From an uncultured Nitrospiraceae bacterium (GTDB taxonomy: Bacteria > Nitrospirota > Thermodesulfovibrionia > Thermodesulfovibrionales > UBA9159), in the NCBI GenBank assembly GCA_964475485.1, contig CAYYWY010000012.1, positions 1 through 62,530 on the forward strand: a DNA stretch of 62,530 nt, written 5' to 3'. Below are positions 2,412-13,441 of the stretch, one piece after another. Position 1 is the first letter of the stretch. The number at the start of each line of letters is the position of its first letter. Under the pieces are notes generated by a model. That model had not been told where the DNA came from. It did no database searches and was given only the letters and a program-made list of their open reading frames with translations. Position numbers and translations under genes: made by a program.

Positions 2412-3029
2412 ATGGATGACCTCGCCAGGGATTACGTGATCTCTTTTTATGGCAGGATGCTGAGGATGTTTGGGGATAGGCCGGAGTCCCTCGGATGGAC
2501 CCGTAACGGACAGGTTCTCCATTATGAGGCCCTCCTCGACATCGGCAATATTGAGGGCAAGAATATCCTCGACTTCGGATGCGGGAAGGGGGATTTTTAT
2601 CGCTTTCTCAGAGAAAAGCAGGTTTGCACCCATTACTCGGGTTTTGATATCAACGAAGACCTCATAACAGTTGCGAGGAAGAGGTACCCCGGGGTCTGCT
2701 TCAGGGTTTTCGACATAGAAACGGATATAATGGAAGAGGATTTCGACTACATATTTCTATGTGGTGTCTTCAATCTCAAAGTCCAGGGAATAGGGCAGAC
2801 CGTAAGGAAAACCCTGAAGACGCTTTTCGGTCATTGCAAGGTAGGGTTGGCCTTCAATGCCCTCTCGTCTCACAGTCCGAAGAAGGATTTCGAGCTGCAC
2901 TATGAATCACCCGGTGAGCTGTTTTCCTTTGCGGTGGAAAACCTCTCTCCGCTTGTTTCCCTGCGGCATGACAGGATCCCCTATGACTTCACGATGTTCG
3001 TATATAAGGGCGTCAACTCCTTTTCCTGA
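2412..3029 (+). CDS. Class I SAM-dependent methyltransferase
   Basis: ILDFGCGKG motif I, GFDI, FDYIFLCGVF. Confidence 0.9.
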   Translation: MDDLARDYVISFYGRMLRMFGDRPESLGWTRNGQVLHYEALLDIGNIEGKNILDFGCGKGDFYRFLREKQVCTHYSGFDINEDLITVARKRYPGVCFRVFDIETDIMEEDFDYIFLCGVFNLKVQGIGQTVRKTLKTLFGHCKVGLAFNALSSHSPKKDFELHYESPGELFSFAVENLSPLVSLRHDRIPYDFTMFVYKGVNSFS

Positions 3030-3114
3030 CCTGTATTCTTCCCGGATTTCAGTCTTTCGTTAGTTGGGGAACTTTCTTTGGCGTTTGAGAGGTATCGTCT
3101 GTTATGATATAAGT

Positions 3115-3309
3115 ATGCAGATGGACAACACGAACGGCAGGATGAGCTGCAGATGTTGCGGAGGCGAGCTGAAGCTGTTCTTCGGCTGAAGGTCTGTCTC
3201 CCTGCGCTGCATGTCATGCAGAAAGGATTTCAGGGTCTCGGAGTATATGGATGAAATCGACGAGGATATGTGGAATCTCATCTCCGGGCGGCCCTGCAAC
3301 CGCGCATAG
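3115..3309 (+). CDS. Small dual-CxxC selenoprotein, 64 aa, Sec at codon 25
   Basis: Hand translation MQMDNTNGRMSCRCCGGELKLFFG-U-RSVSLRCMSCRKDFRVSEYMDEIDEDMWNLISGRPCNRA. In-frame TGA at 3187-3189, hairpin 23 nt downstream, extended -10 upstream. It fills an otherwise empty intergenic gap. Confidence 0.8.
3190..3227 (+). promoter_or_regulatory. Putative bacterial SECIS element
   Basis: Stem CTGCAT (3207-3212) / ATGCAG (3216-3221) with G-first loop GTC and lower pairing CCT/AGG, immediately 3' of the UGA. Confidence 0.65.
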
Positions 3310-3322
3310 GCACTTTATCCCT

Positions 3323-4423
3323 TCATTTCGGCAAGGTTTCTCCCTTCACCCCCATCGCTTCAGCAAGCGCTCTGTGAACAATCTCTCCACGATAGGTGTT
3401 GAGGGAACTCTGTATCGCGGGATCCTCTCTGACCGCCCTCTCGATTCCCATGCTTGCTATTGTCCTGATGTAAGGTAGGGTTACATTGGTCAGGGCCAGG
3501 GTAGCTGTCCTCGGGTACGCGCCCGGCATGTTGGCAACCGTGTAGTGGATAACACCGTCCGTCTCGTAAACGGGAGCGTCGTGGGTTGTGGGGCGCGAGG
3601 TCTCGATACATCCCCCTTGATCCACGGAAACATCCACGATAACCGAGCCCTTTCCAATAGTGCGTAACATCTCCCTTGTTATAAGTACAGGAGTCTTTCC
3701 CCCTGGCACAAGTATTGCCCCTATGATGATGTCGGAGTCCTTTATCTCTTCCTTGAGATTATGTGACGTAAGGGGCAACGTCTCGACCCTTCCCCTGAAC
3801 ATCTCATCCATCTTCTGTAGCCCTTCAATACCCCTGTTGATGACAACAGTCTCCATCCCGAGGCCCACAGCCACCATGGCGGCGTTGGTTCCCACGACTC
3901 CAGCACCGAGTATGAGGAGTTTTGCAGGCTTTACTCCCACTGCGCCTGTGGGAAGAACGCCTTTGCCGCCCTTGAATCTCTGAAGGTAGTAGGCTCCCAT
4001 GAGGGGGGCCATCCTCCCCGCGATCTCGCTCATGGGAGACAGAAGGGGAAGCCTGCCATCCTTCTGAAGTGTTTCATACCCCAGCCCGGTCACCTTTCTG
4101 TTCAGCAGCACTTCGGTGAGTTGACGGTTCGGCGCCAGATGGAGGAAGGTGAACACAGCCTGCCCCTCACGCAGCAGACCATATTCTCCGGGAAGCGGTT
4201 CCTTCACCTTGACGATTAATTCGGCCTTTCCGAACAAAACCTCCCTGTCAACGATATCGGCATCCGTGTTCAGGTACTCTTCATCGGAAAAACCGCTTCC
4301 ATCCCCCGCGCCGCTCTCGACCAAAACCGTGTGGCCGTCCCTCTTCAGCTCTTCAGCTCCGAAGGGTGTGATGCTCACCCTGAACTCTTCCTTCTTTATT
4401 TCCCTCGGCACGCCGATGATCAT
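3323..4423 (-). CDS. ald: Alanine dehydrogenase
   Basis: IGVPREIK, VKVKEP, PMSEIAGR, GAGVVG, DQGGCIETS, VANMPGA motifs. Confidence 0.97.
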   Translation of the reverse strand: MIIGVPREIKKEEFRVSITPFGAEELKRDGHTVLVESGAGDGSGFSDEEYLNTDADIVDREVLFGKAELIVKVKEPLPGEYGLLREGQAVFTFLHLAPNRQLTEVLLNRKVTGLGYETLQKDGRLPLLSPMSEIAGRMAPLMGAYYLQRFKGGKGVLPTGAVGVKPAKLLILGAGVVGTNAAMVAVGLGMETVVINRGIEGLQKMDEMFRGRVETLPLTSHNLKEEIKDSDIIIGAILVPGGKTPVLITREMLRTIGKGSVIVDVSVDQGGCIETSRPTTHDAPVYETDGVIHYTVANMPGAYPRTATLALTNVTLPYIRTIASMGIERAVREDPAIQSSLNTYRGEIVHRALAEAMGVKGETLPK

Positions 4424-9016: not shown

Positions 9017-9946
9017 TTACATCTCCCTCCAATACCGTATCAAATTGGTGACGCCCTCAACAGTAACCACAGTTTCGATCGCTCTTTTCATCTTGTTTTC
9101 CTCGGAGACAGAGATAATACGGAAGTTTCTTGGAGGCGTTATCTGTCCTGCAAATATCCTGCTGCTTATGTTGTTGATCAGATCCTTGCTGAAGCCAGCC
9201 CTCTCCAGATCACCCTTGCCCTCAAAAGGCCTCAGCTTCCTCTGATTCACGACCTCTCTTGCCTGTTCCATAGATATTGATTCACTAAGTGACATTATAA
9301 CAGGTATTGAAGCGGTATTAATATTGACTCGTAAGTCTTCGCTTCCACCGTAGCCGTACACAGTAACATGTGGAGATAACGCCTCATATGTCTGAAGACC
9401 GATGCCTTTTATATGTAGCAATTCGTCAACACTGTCCATAAAAGCGTTCTTTGTGGTTTCCTTAGAGGAAATCAGCGCGGGTACGCTATCCTTGTTTATC
9501 CAAAAAGAAACTCTGTCTGCAATGCTTTCATCAAGTCCAAGGTTGCGGAGAAGCCTTCTAAATGCTTGGATATTACCCGGGGTTTTAAGGGAATTCATAT
9601 TGAATTTCCCGTTTTCGTCTTCTACGCTGACGACAACGGTACCGGAGAAGCCCTCAAGGATATTCTCTACAGGGATCACCATCTTCCCGGGGAATTTGTG
9701 AAGTTCATCCGAAGGGATGTCGGAGATGGTTGTGATCGCAAGAGAGACGCCTGATTTTGCGGCGAAAGAGAGTCTCAGCGAGTCCTTCCAGTTATAAAGG
9801 GCGGAGGTCGTCGTATATACTCCATAGGCGAATTCCACGACCATGGCGGTGATAAGAGTAAGGATCATGAGTGTCAGCACCAGCGCCATGCCTTTCTCTG
9901 AAGATGCATGAAGCGTGAAGCGTGAAGCGTGTAAGGAGCCCCTCAC
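9017..9946 (-). CDS. gspK: Minor pseudopilin K
   Basis: KG|MALVL cleavage site, DENGKFNMN, ELLHIKGI and NINTAS helix-hairpin motifs. Confidence 0.92.
   Translation of the reverse strand: MRGSLHASRFTLHASSEKGMALVLTLMILTLITAMVVEFAYGVYTTTSALYNWKDSLRLSFAAKSGVSLAITTISDIPSDELHKFPGKMVIPVENILEGFSGTVVVSVEDENGKFNMNSLKTPGNIQAFRRLLRNLGLDESIADRVSFWINKDSVPALISSKETTKNAFMDSVDELLHIKGIGLQTYEALSPHVTVYGYGGSEDLRVNINTASIPVIMSLSESISMEQAREVVNQRKLRPFEGKGDLERAGFSKDLINNISSRIFAGQITPPRNFRIISVSEENKMKRAIETVVTVEGVTNLIRYWREM
9909..9929. repeat. Heptamer tandem repeat (TGAAGCG)x3 in the gspK leader
   Basis: Read directly from sequence. Confidence 0.9.
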
Positions 9947-10584
9947 AACGCCTTCCCTATCCTGGGCCTCGCGATTTCCATGACGGCAAGATGGCTGCTC
10001 TCCTCCTTCGCCGCGACCTTGAGCGTGACCCTTATCTCGCCGGGCATTTTCTTTGACATGTCGCTATCCCATGTCTTTATCCATTTGCCGTTGTAGCCTG
10101 CCTCGATGGTGAAAGATTCAAGACCCTTCATCAATTCGAAGTCTTTTGTCCCGGAAGATTCGCCGTATGCGGTCTCCATCTTTTTCTTAAGCACAAGACT
10201 TCCTTCATTTTCTTCGACGGTGTATGATATCCTCGAAAGTCCGGGAGGCAAGGGCGTAAACGAGGTAAAAAGGAGTTGGGAGGCCTGCTTCCCGTAAAAA
10301 TCCCTGTCCTCGAGCTTAAAGACGGTATGCGTCTTTTCCGGGTTGTAGAGCGCGGATTCGAGCTCTCTCTTCAGGGTATCCAGAACAGACCGGCATTCCT
10401 GAAGTTTCAGGAGGGAATCGTCCACCGCATCCGCTGCCCTTTGTGAAAGGAAGAAGGTGCTGTAAAGAGCGGCGATCACCACGGCGGTTATTGCAACGGC
10501 AACGAGAACCTCGAGGAGCGTAAAGCCACGCACAGTGTCGAGAGTTGAGTGTCGAGTGTCGAGTGAAGTGTCTTTACTTTTCAC
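9943..10584 (-). CDS. gspJ: Minor pseudopilin J
   Basis: RG|FTLLEVLVA prepilin motif; gene order. Confidence 0.9.
   Translation of the reverse strand: MKSKDTSLDTRHSTLDTVRGFTLLEVLVAVAITAVVIAALYSTFFLSQRAADAVDDSLLKLQECRSVLDTLKRELESALYNPEKTHTVFKLEDRDFYGKQASQLLFTSFTPLPPGLSRISYTVEENEGSLVLKKKMETAYGESSGTKDFELMKGLESFTIEAGYNGKWIKTWDSDMSKKMPGEIRVTLKVAAKEESSHLAVMEIARPRIGKAL
10535..10562. repeat. Heptamer repeat GTGTCGA x4 (one degenerate) in the gspJ leader
   Basis: GTGTCGA GAGTTGA GTGTCGA GTGTCGA. Confidence 0.85.
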
Positions 10585-10597
10585 CTGAAGATACCTC

Positions 10598-10798
10598 TAT
10601 CCGTCATTGCGGCTTGTCCGCAATCCTTCCGACTTGTTCGGAACCGGAAGAAAGATTCTCGATGCGAGTCCCGAAGCGGGTCTCCGCGAAGGGTCGCTCC
10701 GACTTCGCTGAGAGTCGCTTCGACCCGGCAGGCCTGCCTACCGGACAGGCAGGCGGGAATGACAGTTTGTGTCGCCTTACTAATGACCGTATTAGTAA
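10598..10798. mobile_element. Composite REP/MITE-like element between gspI and gspJ
   Basis: TATCCGTCATTGCGG-CTTGT-CCGCAAT hairpin, nested GCCTGCCT-N7-AGGCAGGC (10732-10754), GGGAATGACAG end, and terminal palindrome TTACTAAT-N6-ATTAGTAA. Confidence 0.7.
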
Positions 10799-10803
10799 CA
10801 TCA

Positions 10804-11229
10804 TCATTTCTGTTTTCTGATAAGTTCAGAAAGCCTGACGCTTTCTTTGCCGTCAGAGACGGTCACCGATATCTCGGACATGCCTGGAAAGGAAGAATCC
10901 CTGACGGCAGTCTCATAGGAGAAGCTGGAATACGGTTCAGGGAACTGCCCCTTATCGGTCACCGGCTTCCTCTCCATTGCATACATTTTTTCCTTTGCGA
11001 GGCTTGCGGATGTGGTGATGATCCTGTGCCTTTCCGCAATTCCGAGGTGATAGTTCAAGGTGTATATCAGAGTGACAAGAAGTCCGCCCACTATAGCAAG
11101 GCTTATCATGACTTCGAGGAGGGTAAAGCCCCTCTTCGCAGTGACGCGTGACGCGTGATGCGTGACGTGTAAGAGAAATCTTCCCTTCCGGGCCTTGCAT
11201 TTCTTAATCATCAACTTGTCACTTGTCAC
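10804..11229 (-). CDS. gspI: Minor pseudopilin I
   Basis: RG|FTLLEVMISL prepilin motif; short; gene order. Confidence 0.9.
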   Translation of the reverse strand: MTSDKLMIKKCKARKGRFLLHVTHHASRVTAKRGFTLLEVMISLAIVGGLLVTLIYTLNYHLGIAERHRIITTSASLAKEKMYAMERKPVTDKGQFPEPYSSFSYETAVRDSSFPGMSEISVTVSDGKESVRLSELIRKQK

Positions 11230-11236
11230 TTGTCAC
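11141..11236. repeat. Inverted pair of heptamer arrays in the gspI leader and gspH end
   Basis: GTGACGC-type x4 at 11141-11168 and TTGTCAC x3 at 11216-11236. Confidence 0.9.
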
Positions 11237-11728
11237 TACCTTCACCCTTCCGCTCATATTGTTGAAGACGACCGACATATCCGCCTTATCATCCTTAAGG
11301 CGCACGGTGAAACTCTCCGATGCCCCAAACGGGCTGAAGAAGATAATGACCTCGCCATCGGAAACCATCCCCCTGGACTGTAGTTCTATTCCTGAAAGGG
11401 AATCGAATTTCTCGGACTTTTCTCCCTCAGGACTGTTGTAGCTTATGAGCCTGTCGCTGAAAACGGCCTTCATTTGAAGGGTCTCTTTCGTGGATATCGC
11501 ACTGTCGTTCAGATACCGGATTATGGAGCCAAGGCGTTTTGCATCGGATTTCAGTCTGCTCTCCCCGATCCCGGTAAAGGATGGGAGGGCGACCGCAAAC
11601 ACAAGGGAGACGATAAAGATCACGACCATCAATTCGAAAAGGGTGAAACCCGCGCGAGTAACGAGTAACGAGTAACGAGTAACGAGTGCCAATTCCTTAC
11701 CCTTGCTTTTCAACCTGTTACCCGTCAC
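11219..11728 (-). CDS. gspH: Minor pseudopilin H
   Basis: AG|FTLFELMVV prepilin motif; gene order. Confidence 0.88.
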   Translation of the reverse strand: MTGNRLKSKGKELALVTRYSLLVTRAGFTLFELMVVIFIVSLVFAVALPSFTGIGESRLKSDAKRLGSIIRYLNDSAISTKETLQMKAVFSDRLISYNSPEGEKSEKFDSLSGIELQSRGMVSDGEVIIFFSPFGASESFTVRLKDDKADMSVVFNNMSGRVKVVTSDK

Positions 11729-11735
11729 TTGTCAC
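11655..11735. repeat. Inverted pair of heptamer arrays in the gspH leader
   Basis: CGAGTAA x4 perfect at 11655-11682 and CTGTTAC CCGTCAC TTGTCAC at 11715-11735. Confidence 0.9.
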
Positions 11736-12241
11736 TGCCTTTGCATGTCCCAGCTCTTGATGTCTGCGTCCTTTCCCTCCCCGCCTTCCTTGCCGTCCGC
11801 GCCATAGCTCAGGATGTCGTAGTCCCCGTTCAGTCCTGGAGATACGTAAATATAAGGATTGCCCCACGGGTCTGTCGGGATCTTCTTCTGTTCCAGGTAT
11901 CCGCCTTCCTTGTAGTTCTGCGGCAACCGTCCGCTCGCCGGCTTTTCCACGAGGGCCTGAAGACCCTGCTGGGTATCGGGATAAAACCCGTTGTCCATCT
12001 TGAAAAGTTTGAGGGCCGTCTCGAAATTCCTTATCTGTACCTTCGCCTCCGCAATCCTTGCGTCATCCGTCCTGCCTATAATCCTCGGAGCCACGATTGC
12101 CGCGAGAAGACTCAGGATGAAGACGACGACAAGGATCTCAAGAAGGGTGAAGCCGCCACTCCCCTTGAATTCCCCCCTTGCCGAGGGGAAATATAGAGGT
12201 GTAGTTTTTGAATTTTTCATTTTGAATTTTGCATCTTGCAT
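11732..12241 (-). CDS. gspG: Major pseudopilin G
   Basis: GG|FTLLEILVV, GLQALVEKP, DPWGNPY, SYGADG motifs. Confidence 0.97.
   Translation of the reverse strand: MQDAKFKMKNSKTTPLYFPSARGEFKGSGGFTLLEILVVVFILSLLAAIVAPRIIGRTDDARIAEAKVQIRNFETALKLFKMDNGFYPDTQQGLQALVEKPASGRLPQNYKEGGYLEQKKIPTDPWGNPYIYVSPGLNGDYDILSYGADGKEGGEGKDADIKSWDMQRQ
12161..12241. repeat. CCCC/GGGG palindrome plus five heptamer units in the gspG leader
   Basis: Hairpin at 12161-12201; TTTGAAT TTTTCAT TTTGAAT TTTGCAT CTTGCAT at 12207-12241. Confidence 0.8.
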
Positions 12242-12265
12242 CTATTTAACCTCCGCTATCATTTA

Positions 12266-13441
12266 TCACTTTATCAACTGATTCAACTGGAACATCGGCA
12301 GCAGGACCGCAAGGACGATGAAAAGCACCACAAGCCCCATCACCAGTATCATGACAGGCTCGAAAAGGGAAACCGCGCCGTTCACCTTCCTGTTGAATTC
12401 CTCCTCATAGGACTGGGCTGCCCTGCTCAGGGTTTCGGGAAGCCTTCCGCTTTTCTCCCCGGTTGCGATGAGCCGAAGAAAGACCGGCGGAAAGCCTTCA
12501 AGCGTGGAAGAAAGGCTCTGACCCTCGGCTACTCTTCTCTCCGCATTCAGGACAGATTGCTCAAGCACCATGTTACCCATGGATTTTGCCGAAAGGCTCA
12601 ACGCCCTGAGCATGGGGAGCCCTCCCTCAAGAAGGAAACCGAGGTTCCTTGCGAAACGGTAGTAGTAGAGACTCTGGACCATGTTGCCCGGGAGTTTCAG
12701 AAGAATCCGGTCAACAAAAAGTCTGTGAGAAGTAAAGAGCTTCCTTAGTGATATCACTGCTCCGCCGGCAAGGCCCGCCAAAACCCACCAATAATTGACA
12801 AAGACATTGCTCACGATTATGAGGAATTGAGTGATGAGAGGCAGCGTTGCCTTTGTATCGTGGAAGATCTTCACGATCTTCGGGATTACGAAGGTGAAGA
12901 GAAAGGAGAGGATTACAATACTCACGCCCATCATTAGAGCAGGATATATCATGGATGAGCGCACCCTGGCTCTGACGGTATTCCGGCCTTCGAGAAAGTC
13001 TGCAAGTCTCATGAGGACCCTGTCCAGAGTACCGCTCTGCTCGCCGGAATGGACCATATTGATATAGAACTCCGGGAAGACGCGGCCAAAATCCTCCAGG
13101 GCCTTGGAAAGGCTGGAACCTCCTGCGACCTTTTCCTTTATCGCAATCAGCATCTCCATGTAAAAGCCCCTTCTCTCGGCAGACAGAGACTGGAGGGCGT
13201 CCATCAAGGGAACTCCTGATGAGAGGAGTATCGAAAGCTGCCGGGTCATGCCAGGGAGGAAGGATTCTTCAGTCCTCTGAAAAAGCCTTTTCTTTCCTGT
13301 TATCCTGGACTCGATGACCTCACTTGGGAAGACGCCCTCCGCCCTGACCCTGAGCATCGCGTCGTTCATGCCCGATGCCTCGATACTGCCGCTCACATCC
13401 CTGCCGTCTGCAGTGTATCCTCTATATCTGAATATCGGCAT
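12266..13441 (-). CDS. gspF: Type II secretion inner membrane platform protein F
   Basis: RQLSILLSSGVPL, SGEQSGTL, YP, GEKSGRL, EP duplicated T2SSF motifs. Confidence 0.96.
   Translation of the reverse strand: MPIFRYRGYTADGRDVSGSIEASGMNDAMLRVRAEGVFPSEVIESRITGKKRLFQRTEESFLPGMTRQLSILLSSGVPLMDALQSLSAERRGFYMEMLIAIKEKVAGGSSLSKALEDFGRVFPEFYINMVHSGEQSGTLDRVLMRLADFLEGRNTVRARVRSSMIYPALMMGVSIVILSFLFTFVIPKIVKIFHDTKATLPLITQFLIIVSNVFVNYWWVLAGLAGGAVISLRKLFTSHRLFVDRILLKLPGNMVQSLYYYRFARNLGFLLEGGLPMLRALSLSAKSMGNMVLEQSVLNAERRVAEGQSLSSTLEGFPPVFLRLIATGEKSGRLPETLSRAAQSYEEEFNRKVNGAVSLFEPVMILVMGLVVLFIVLAVLLPMFQLNQLIK

Follow-up and report, generated by a model that had tools for sequence, protein, structure and literature searches.

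The 64-codon frame at 3115-3309 of the window, i.e., of the whole 62,530-nt stretch of DNA that we analysed, is very probably a functional selenoprotein gene of the known family NF041197 (OS_HP3 / DW), in which UGA is read as selenocysteine (Sec). The preliminary description of this DNA had proposed a selenoprotein gene here, and the TGA column, the conservation of its flanks, the hairpin that follows it and the Sec machinery of the genome all agree with this proposal. The data show family membership, conservation of the UGA, Sec/Cys pairing at its column, covariation within the hairpin and the Sec machinery. The kind of protein is already known and curated, and the mechanism would be the ordinary bacterial Sec mechanism.

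The gene, its family and its in-frame UGA

The frame fills the gap between a methyltransferase and an alanine dehydrogenase gene and translates to MQMDNTNGRMSCRCCGGELKLFFG-U-RSVSLRCMSCRKDFRVSEYMDEIDEDMWNLISGRPCNRA. Respective coordinates are given in Table 1. The 64 codons, the TGA, the CRCC and CMSC motifs, the RPCNRA end and the box 6 nt before the ATG all lie where the preliminary description had placed them. It had also held that the gene was missed by the ORF track. This is consistent with the output of translation table 11, which yields only a 41-aa and a 32-aa ORF across the region, such that a length-filtered ORF track would miss the gene.

Table 1. Features of the locus in window coordinates.
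Feature	Position	Strand	Remark
Dual-CxxC small selenoprotein CDS (very probable)	3115..3309	+	64 codons plus TAG, one in-frame TGA
Start codon ATG	3115	+	
Stop codon TAG	3307-3309	+	
Single in-frame TGA	3187-3189	+	codon 25, between CRCC and CMSC, Sec motif G-U-R
First CxxC knuckle, C12 R C C15	3148..3159	+	codons 12-15 (CRCC)
Second CxxC knuckle, C32 M S C35	3208..3219	+	codons 32-35 (CMSC)
C-terminal Cys, C61, within RPCNRA	3295..3297	+	candidate resolving cysteine
TGTTATGAT	3100-3108	+	ends 6 nt before ATG 3115; extended -10-like box
Bacterial SECIS (putative), upper stem and apical loop CUGCAU / GUC / AUGCAG	3207..3221	+	codons of second CxxC
Possible lower stem, CCCUG 3200-3204 with CAGGG 3231-3235	3200..3235	+	MFE fold of window sequence only
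Class I methyltransferase gene	2412-3029	+	upstream neighbour
Alanine dehydrogenase gene	3323-4423	-	downstream neighbour, convergent

The 3' ends of the selenoprotein gene and of the convergent alanine dehydrogenase gene are separated by 13 nt (3307-3325). No terminator-like site was seen between the two gene ends, and the two transcripts probably overlap. On the opposite strand, a 65-aa ORF (3102-3299, minus strand) overlaps the entire selenoprotein gene and probably arises as an artefact of conservation in the plus-strand frame.

With regard to family membership, we compared the product with the NCBIfam equivalog model NF041197.2 ('dual CXXC motif small (seleno)protein'), whose curated cut-off is 40 bits. 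When C takes the place of U, the score is 57.5 bits (E 1.1e-15) over profile positions 1-52 of 53. A six-frame genome search with the stop read through gives 48.9 bits and reports '1 TGA' at the site. Since this score exceeds the cut-off as well, membership is independent of the choice of C for U. The likeness to dual-CXXC small (seleno)proteins, which had been put forward before, thus turned out to be true membership in NF041197.

Other protein families were considered too. The sole Pfam return for the recoded protein at E <= 10 is zf-C2H2_12 (E 1.1). Rubredoxin and MsrB/SelR have no Pfam match at E <= 10, and the HypA model NF003008 gives 10.3 bits against a cut-off of 125. A protein database search with the recoded protein returned no full-length homologue. 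This is no evidence of absence, because predicted proteins end at the UGA. The related-loci search with the whole protein gave two spurious short matches. In a protein atlas, the natural Cys-form homologue (locus L054) is grouped in clusters whose automatic name is 'putative Dual CXXC motif small (Seleno)protein'.

Within the table of a 2026 review (PMC13188914), NF041197 is entered twice, namely as OS_HP3 and as hypothetical protein DW. For the former, found in Olavius algarvensis symbionts, Zhang & Gladyshev 2007 count two Sec genes and 0 Cys homologues (PMC1976440); the latter was described from Desulfosarcina in the deep-Sep paper of Xiao & Zhang 2025 (PMC12013277). The window protein is another member and nothing different in kind: like the family, it is small, has two CxxC motifs with Sec (rarely Cys) between them, and is followed, after the UGA, by a SECIS-like hairpin. 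Two details deviate from these sources. The Sec motifs tabulated for NF041197, 'RxU' and 'GxU' (PMC13188914), both differ from the G-U-[R/K] of the loci studied here, and Cys forms, counted as 0 in the 2007 paper (PMC1976440), do exist among our data (L054 and the TGA-less matches). Full-text literature searches for 'dual CXXC motif' and 'NF041197' returned no paper that assigns a function.

Next, we studied the conservation of the UGA and of the protein around it. Our search of the family and order to which the genome belongs covered 61 genomes, this one among them; the gene was matched at E <= 0.001 in 50, and 42 of these exceed the cut-off. All 50 matching genomes have exactly one in-frame TGA, and it is always found at the same column. 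Within the phylum, 172/401 genomes match NF041197. The listing, which covers 150 matches and leaves aside 28 more, shows one TGA in 146 cases and no TGA in 4. A few genomes (G241, G150, G254, G300 and G363) hold two or three family copies each.

A closer view is provided by the 58 best-scoring loci, which are a biased sample for that reason. Counted from the first Cys to the C-terminus, each of the 58 has 53 residues that align without gaps, in the layout C-x2-C-x9-[U/C]-x6-C-x2-C. The Sec column, always 13 codons after the first Cys, is TGA in 57/58 and TGT (Cys) in the remaining one (L054). Among 57 aligned proteins, C12, C15, C32 and C35 are invariant, and so are the Sec/Cys column and one Trp. 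The residue preceding Sec/Cys is G in 49/57, and the one following is R or K in 55/57. The C-terminal Cys column is less strict (Cys 45/57, Ser 7, Ala 4, Ile 1), i.e., C61 has no counterpart in 12/57 members and is thus not essential to the family.

A simple nonsense mutation, which the preliminary description had itself named as an alternative, is not supported. Conservation among homologues extends to either side of the TGA, and the sole alternative codon at its column in the 58 best-scoring loci is Cys, never Trp or Arg. For codon positions 1/2/3, the entropy amounts to 1.09/0.88/1.56 in the part preceding the UGA and to 0.84/0.63/1.39 in the part following it. The variability of the third position hence persists, which means that the coding pattern runs beyond the 'stop'. 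At the same time, TGA is the commonest stop of the genome, where it closes 609/1315 long frames, and it also terminates the dual-CxxC gene itself in 29/57 homologues. In these 29, a short mRNA contains two UGA codons with about 120 nt between them, of which the upstream one is apparently recoded and the downstream one terminates.

These observations bear on two alternative readings of the codon. First, the TGA could be a plain stop and the locus a pseudogene, a pair of mini-ORFs (3064-3189 and 3211-3309) or a non-coding spacer. Such a reading fits the output of translation table 11 with its 41-aa and 32-aa ORFs, the protein database search without full-length homologue and the rank of TGA as the genome's commonest stop. 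However, an empty protein search is to be expected given that gene callers truncate such genes, and the reading conflicts with the one TGA at the same column, without gaps and with conserved flanks, in all 50 matching genomes, with its replacement by a Cys codon in L054 and with the third-position variability after it; we consider it highly improbable. Second, a reading of TGA as Trp or Gly by a variant genetic code or a suppressor, for which nothing specific speaks beyond an open frame that alone cannot separate the readings, can practically be dismissed, since TGA closes the long frames and homologues counted above, the alternative residue at the column is Cys, and the genome has the full Sec pathway plus a tRNA-Sec with anticodon TCA. 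Taken together, the fixed TGA column, the gapless flanks, the coding pattern and the use of TGA as an ordinary stop effectively exclude a nonsense mutation, mini-ORFs and a variant code.

The hairpin after the UGA and the start of the transcript

In bacteria, a SECIS hairpin recruits SelB carrying Sec-tRNA(UCA). The window hairpin consists of a 6-bp stem and a 3-nt loop, and the spacing from UGA to loop is 23 nt (3190-3212). This confirms the G-first 3-nt loop starting 23 nt after the UGA that had been described before (GUC loop, hairpin 3207-3221). The spacing of 23 nt is identical in all 56 aligned sequences of a gapless alignment.

We investigated the hairpin in this alignment of 56 UGA-containing sequences, where a 7-pair helix joins columns 20-26 with columns 30-36. 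Paired cells amount to 94.1% compared to 90.4% in shuffles (0/500 shuffles equal it), and the covariation score is 0.146 compared to 0.082 (0/500 attain it), both tests being inflated by the kinship of the aligned sequences. Shifting the 3' partner by 1-3 columns drops the pairing to 18-50%. Cys and Gly codons dictate most pairs of the stem, which are hence uninformative, and the covariation rests mainly on one pair. This is the closing pair, formed by the second base of the first x codon and the wobble base of the second x codon, which is CG in 26, UA in 10, GC in 5, UG in 2 and AU in 1 of the 56 sequences and unpaired in 12. Among the 33 sequences whose second x codon is four-fold degenerate, the wobble base of this codon is paired across the stem in 29, which is hard to explain by selection on the protein. 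G is the first loop base in 54/56 sequences and the second in the other 2; the loop of the window has G followed by U.

In energy, the stretch after the UGA is ordinary. The 64 nt after the UGA fold at -17.2 kcal/mol (z = -0.40; 63/200 shuffles fold as well or better), the first 50 nt from the UGA at -12.6 kcal/mol and the upper hairpin alone at -4.9 to -6.2 kcal/mol. Support for the hairpin therefore comes from conservation and covariation, not from energy. A possible lower stem (3200-3235) shows up in the MFE fold of the window sequence only; among homologues, a lower helix in fixed register is kept in part, with 2-3 extra pairs moderately conserved, and we make no claim for it. Rfam, searched at E <= 10 over 3000-3400, returned no SECIS family; three eukaryotic snoRNA/miRNA models match at chance level.

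As given in the review (PMC13188914), the bacterial SECIS consensus of the bSECISearch model has a loop of 3-9 nt, an upper stem of 4-16 bp, a G as first or second loop base, often with a G or U after it, a distance of 16-37 nt from UGA to apical loop and an MFE of -7.5 kcal/mol or lower. In loop, stem, G and spacing, the window hairpin is like this consensus as there summarised (PMC13188914). The energy value of that summary is reached by the extended fold (-12.6/-17.2 kcal/mol) but not by the hairpin alone. Compared to the consensus, the upper stem of the window is short, weak and made up wholly of Cys-x-x-Cys codons, i.e., the second CxxC motif and the RNA hairpin are the same bases (double coding).

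In the proposed mechanism, the ribosome would decode the UGA at 3187-3189 as Sec, with the hairpin at 3207-3221, 23 nt downstream, presumably recruiting SelB with Sec-tRNA(UCA). Its bases would thereby serve twice, as the second CxxC in the protein and as the SECIS in the RNA. The product would have 64 residues, or 55 if translation starts at ATG 3142.

The frame offers three ATGs as candidate starts (3115, 3121 and 3142), the last of which corresponds to the start of most homologues, 6 nt ahead of the first Cys. The upstream box TGTTATGAT is TGnTATAAT with one mismatch, and its 6-nt gap to ATG 3115 is the right spacing for a transcript start at that A, which favours a leaderless mRNA and the 64-residue product. 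A simple sigma-70 promoter scan found no -35/-10 pair at the locus, and the promoter/terminator scan reported one terminator-like site (2993-3014), inside the 3' end of the methyltransferase gene.

We further compared the upstream regions of loci from the order (L022-L050, L054, L064, L066 and L067) with those of a different family within the phylum, f25 (L051-L078); L056 and three loci assigned at class level belong to neither group, and the loci compared are related and hence not independent. In the order, 21/34 loci have a -10-like hexamer at a distance of 4-9 nt before an in-frame start, compared to 5.9 +/- 2.2 in shuffles (0/1000 reach 21), and several of these loci have an exact TATAAT 5-6 nt before the start. 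In family f25, the hexamer precedes the start in 1/20 loci. Shine-Dalgarno-like tetramers, on the other hand, are found in 14/20 loci of f25 and in 11/34 of the order. Judged by these upstream sequences, the gene in this order probably has a leaderless transcript and would stand alone, and the comparison suggests that leaderless selenoprotein mRNAs are restricted to one lineage. The double coding of SECIS and CxxC, with wobble bases that keep the closing pair, together with the apparent leaderlessness within the order could make the family a handy case for studying how a SECIS and a coding sequence are reconciled.

Sec machinery of the host and distribution of the family

A selenoprotein gene implies a host with Sec machinery, and all of its parts were found in the genome: selA (612 bits), selB (361 bits) and selD (339 bits) score above their curated cut-offs, and the tRNA-Sec reaches 72.9 bits compared to a gathering score of 47, with anticodon TCA (ARAGORN tRNA-SeC). 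selB adjoins selA on contig C19, where the two are divergent neighbours (9435-13297; selA on the minus and selB on the plus strand). The tRNA-Sec gene is located at 34774-34867 of contig C21, beside tRNA-Pro(CGG) and tRNA-Arg(CCT). The selD gene (contig C42, 9750-10673) has an in-frame TGA of its own in the context ...SSCAG-U-AAKF..., so that selenophosphate synthetase is itself a selenoprotein. Downstream of this UGA, the MFE fold shows a hairpin whose loop does not begin with G, and the two genes yield no useful common signature.

Next, we related the family to selA within the phylum. selA is found in 192 of the same 401 genomes. In family-level tallies, NF041197 is confined to families that also have selA: those without selA (e.g., 0/75, 0/28, 0/12 and 0/11) show zero matches, and those with selA mostly carry the gene (selA 34/35 and gene 30/35; selA 54/64 and gene 50/64). 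Within the order, selA is retained in all 11 genomes without the gene, which can thus do without the protein. For the four TGA-less matches, selA is present in three genomes and absent from G335 (99% complete).

The present analysis recovers a gene which standard gene calling breaks up into two ORFs below threshold and adds one more entry to the selenoproteome of a genome. The family matters more than this copy, given its presence in 172/401 genomes of the phylum and its almost constant use of Sec over Cys.

Fold, proposed function and gene neighbourhood

An AlphaFold model was built on a 57-sequence alignment. Its mean pLDDT is 78.9 with residues 1-7 disordered, and it shows three strands (18-23, 28-32 and 38-40) as well as two helices (41-44 and 50-57). 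The CxxC knuckles (12-15 and 32-35) bracket strands 1 and 2, and Sec25 is placed in the turn between these strands. The predicted fold would be a zinc ribbon of three strands with an acidic helix behind it. Fold searches point weakly in the same direction: Foldseek against the PDB has no match at E <= 0.001, and in the wide fold search with VIA the zinc-ribbon matches are weak (best Z 3.1). A PDB sequence search reports similarity to C2H2 and HypA knuckles only (E >= 5.7e-4, about 10-30 residues each). The label 'zinc-ribbon-like' of the preliminary description agrees with the model and with these weak fold matches. The 'redox or metal-sensing' role that it had proposed stays conjectural.

Two CxxC knuckles and, by the model, a three-stranded sheet are features that the protein would share with known zinc ribbons, e.g., Rpb9/C11/A12, the topoisomerase I C-terminal ribbon, the MqsA N-domain and ZifS. 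The best fold matches to such ribbons cover the ribbon part and are weak (no Foldseek match at E <= 0.001, VIA Z <= 3.1). In contrast to the known ribbons, the window family has the Sec and a conserved acidic helix, EYxDEIDExxW.

In a zinc ribbon, the turn between strands 1 and 2 lies opposite the metal end. Given this geometry and the position of Sec25 in that turn, the selenol would be exposed and would not act as a fifth ligand of the metal. In the scheme that we propose, the four invariant Cys would form metal knuckles at one end, and the Sec in the G-U-R turn would, by the predicted secondary structure, be located at the far end from the metal site. We tentatively favour a reading in which a zinc-stabilised scaffold would carry the Sec as an exposed, redox-active selenol. 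The C-terminal Cys could then resolve the oxidised selenol via a selenenylsulfide in most members.

A comparable arrangement is found in MsrB/SelR, where two CxxC bind a structural zinc, the catalytic Sec/Cys is separate, and the resolving Cys is not always present. The likeness would be an analogy of shared logic only: the window protein has no sequence similarity to MsrB/SelR (Pfam, E <= 10), is less than half its size and is not a member.

The main rival accepts the same gene and decoding and takes the Sec as a ligand or sensor of a soft metal (e.g., Ni, Cu, Hg or Fe), with the protein being a small metal chaperone or sensor. Four invariant Cys plus Sec within 53 residues would suit this role, as would the sub-threshold similarity to HypA nickel insertion (E 0.52 in NCBIfam, E 0.052 for PDB 3a43). 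Furthermore, FeoB, NosL, an ArsR-type regulator or a P-type ATPase is encoded beside single loci. The HypA similarity, however, spans the CxxC knuckle only and stays at 10.3 bits where 125 would be needed, the metal-related neighbours occur once each among 57 loci, and the AlphaFold secondary structure puts the Sec in a turn far from the knuckles. We therefore regard a soft-metal role as possible but rather doubtful.

A further possibility concerns the family as a whole. Anaerobic lineages that use selenium may have it as a Sec-obligate core micro-protein, leaderless in this order, whose exposed selenol would act as a dedicated redox or selenium-status switch and would not be part of an enzyme. 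We deem this unlikely. If true, it would define a new functional class of bacterial selenoprotein, i.e., a regulatory or sensor micro-protein, with the recoding signal and the metal site written in the same 15 bases.

Another reading is that the protein reports selenium status, such that the ratio of full-length product to 24-residue peptide signals the supply of Sec-tRNA or selenium. It draws on the confinement of the gene to selA-bearing families and its presence in most of their genomes, on the rarity of Cys forms (4/150 among the matches listed) and on a gene that is alone, has no enzyme partner and is probably transcribed as a minimal leaderless mRNA. This reading is nevertheless pure inference. 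The Cys-form genome G335 keeps the gene without selA, eleven selA-bearing genomes do without it, and Pfam finds no DNA-binding or signalling domain, which together make it quite improbable.

Finally, we surveyed the gene neighbourhood by comparing the flanking frames of 57 loci (112 frames) with Pfam. No partner gene is conserved across the order in this survey, and guilt by association consequently yields no function. FeoB, NosL, the ArsR-type regulator and the P-type ATPase are each a neighbour of a single locus among the 57. Synteny is found only inside the window's own family, where a convergent alanine dehydrogenase gene lies downstream in 6/8 loci and the upstream gene is a methyltransferase in 3 loci and IlvD in 3. 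In family f25, the gene for aspartyl-tRNA synthetase (aspS) is located directly upstream on the same strand in 13/20 parsed loci (L051, L052, L053, L055, L057-L060, L065, L068, L070, L072 and L078). Outside these two families, the neighbours vary. At locus L067, the upstream gene encodes a histidyl-tRNA synthetase.
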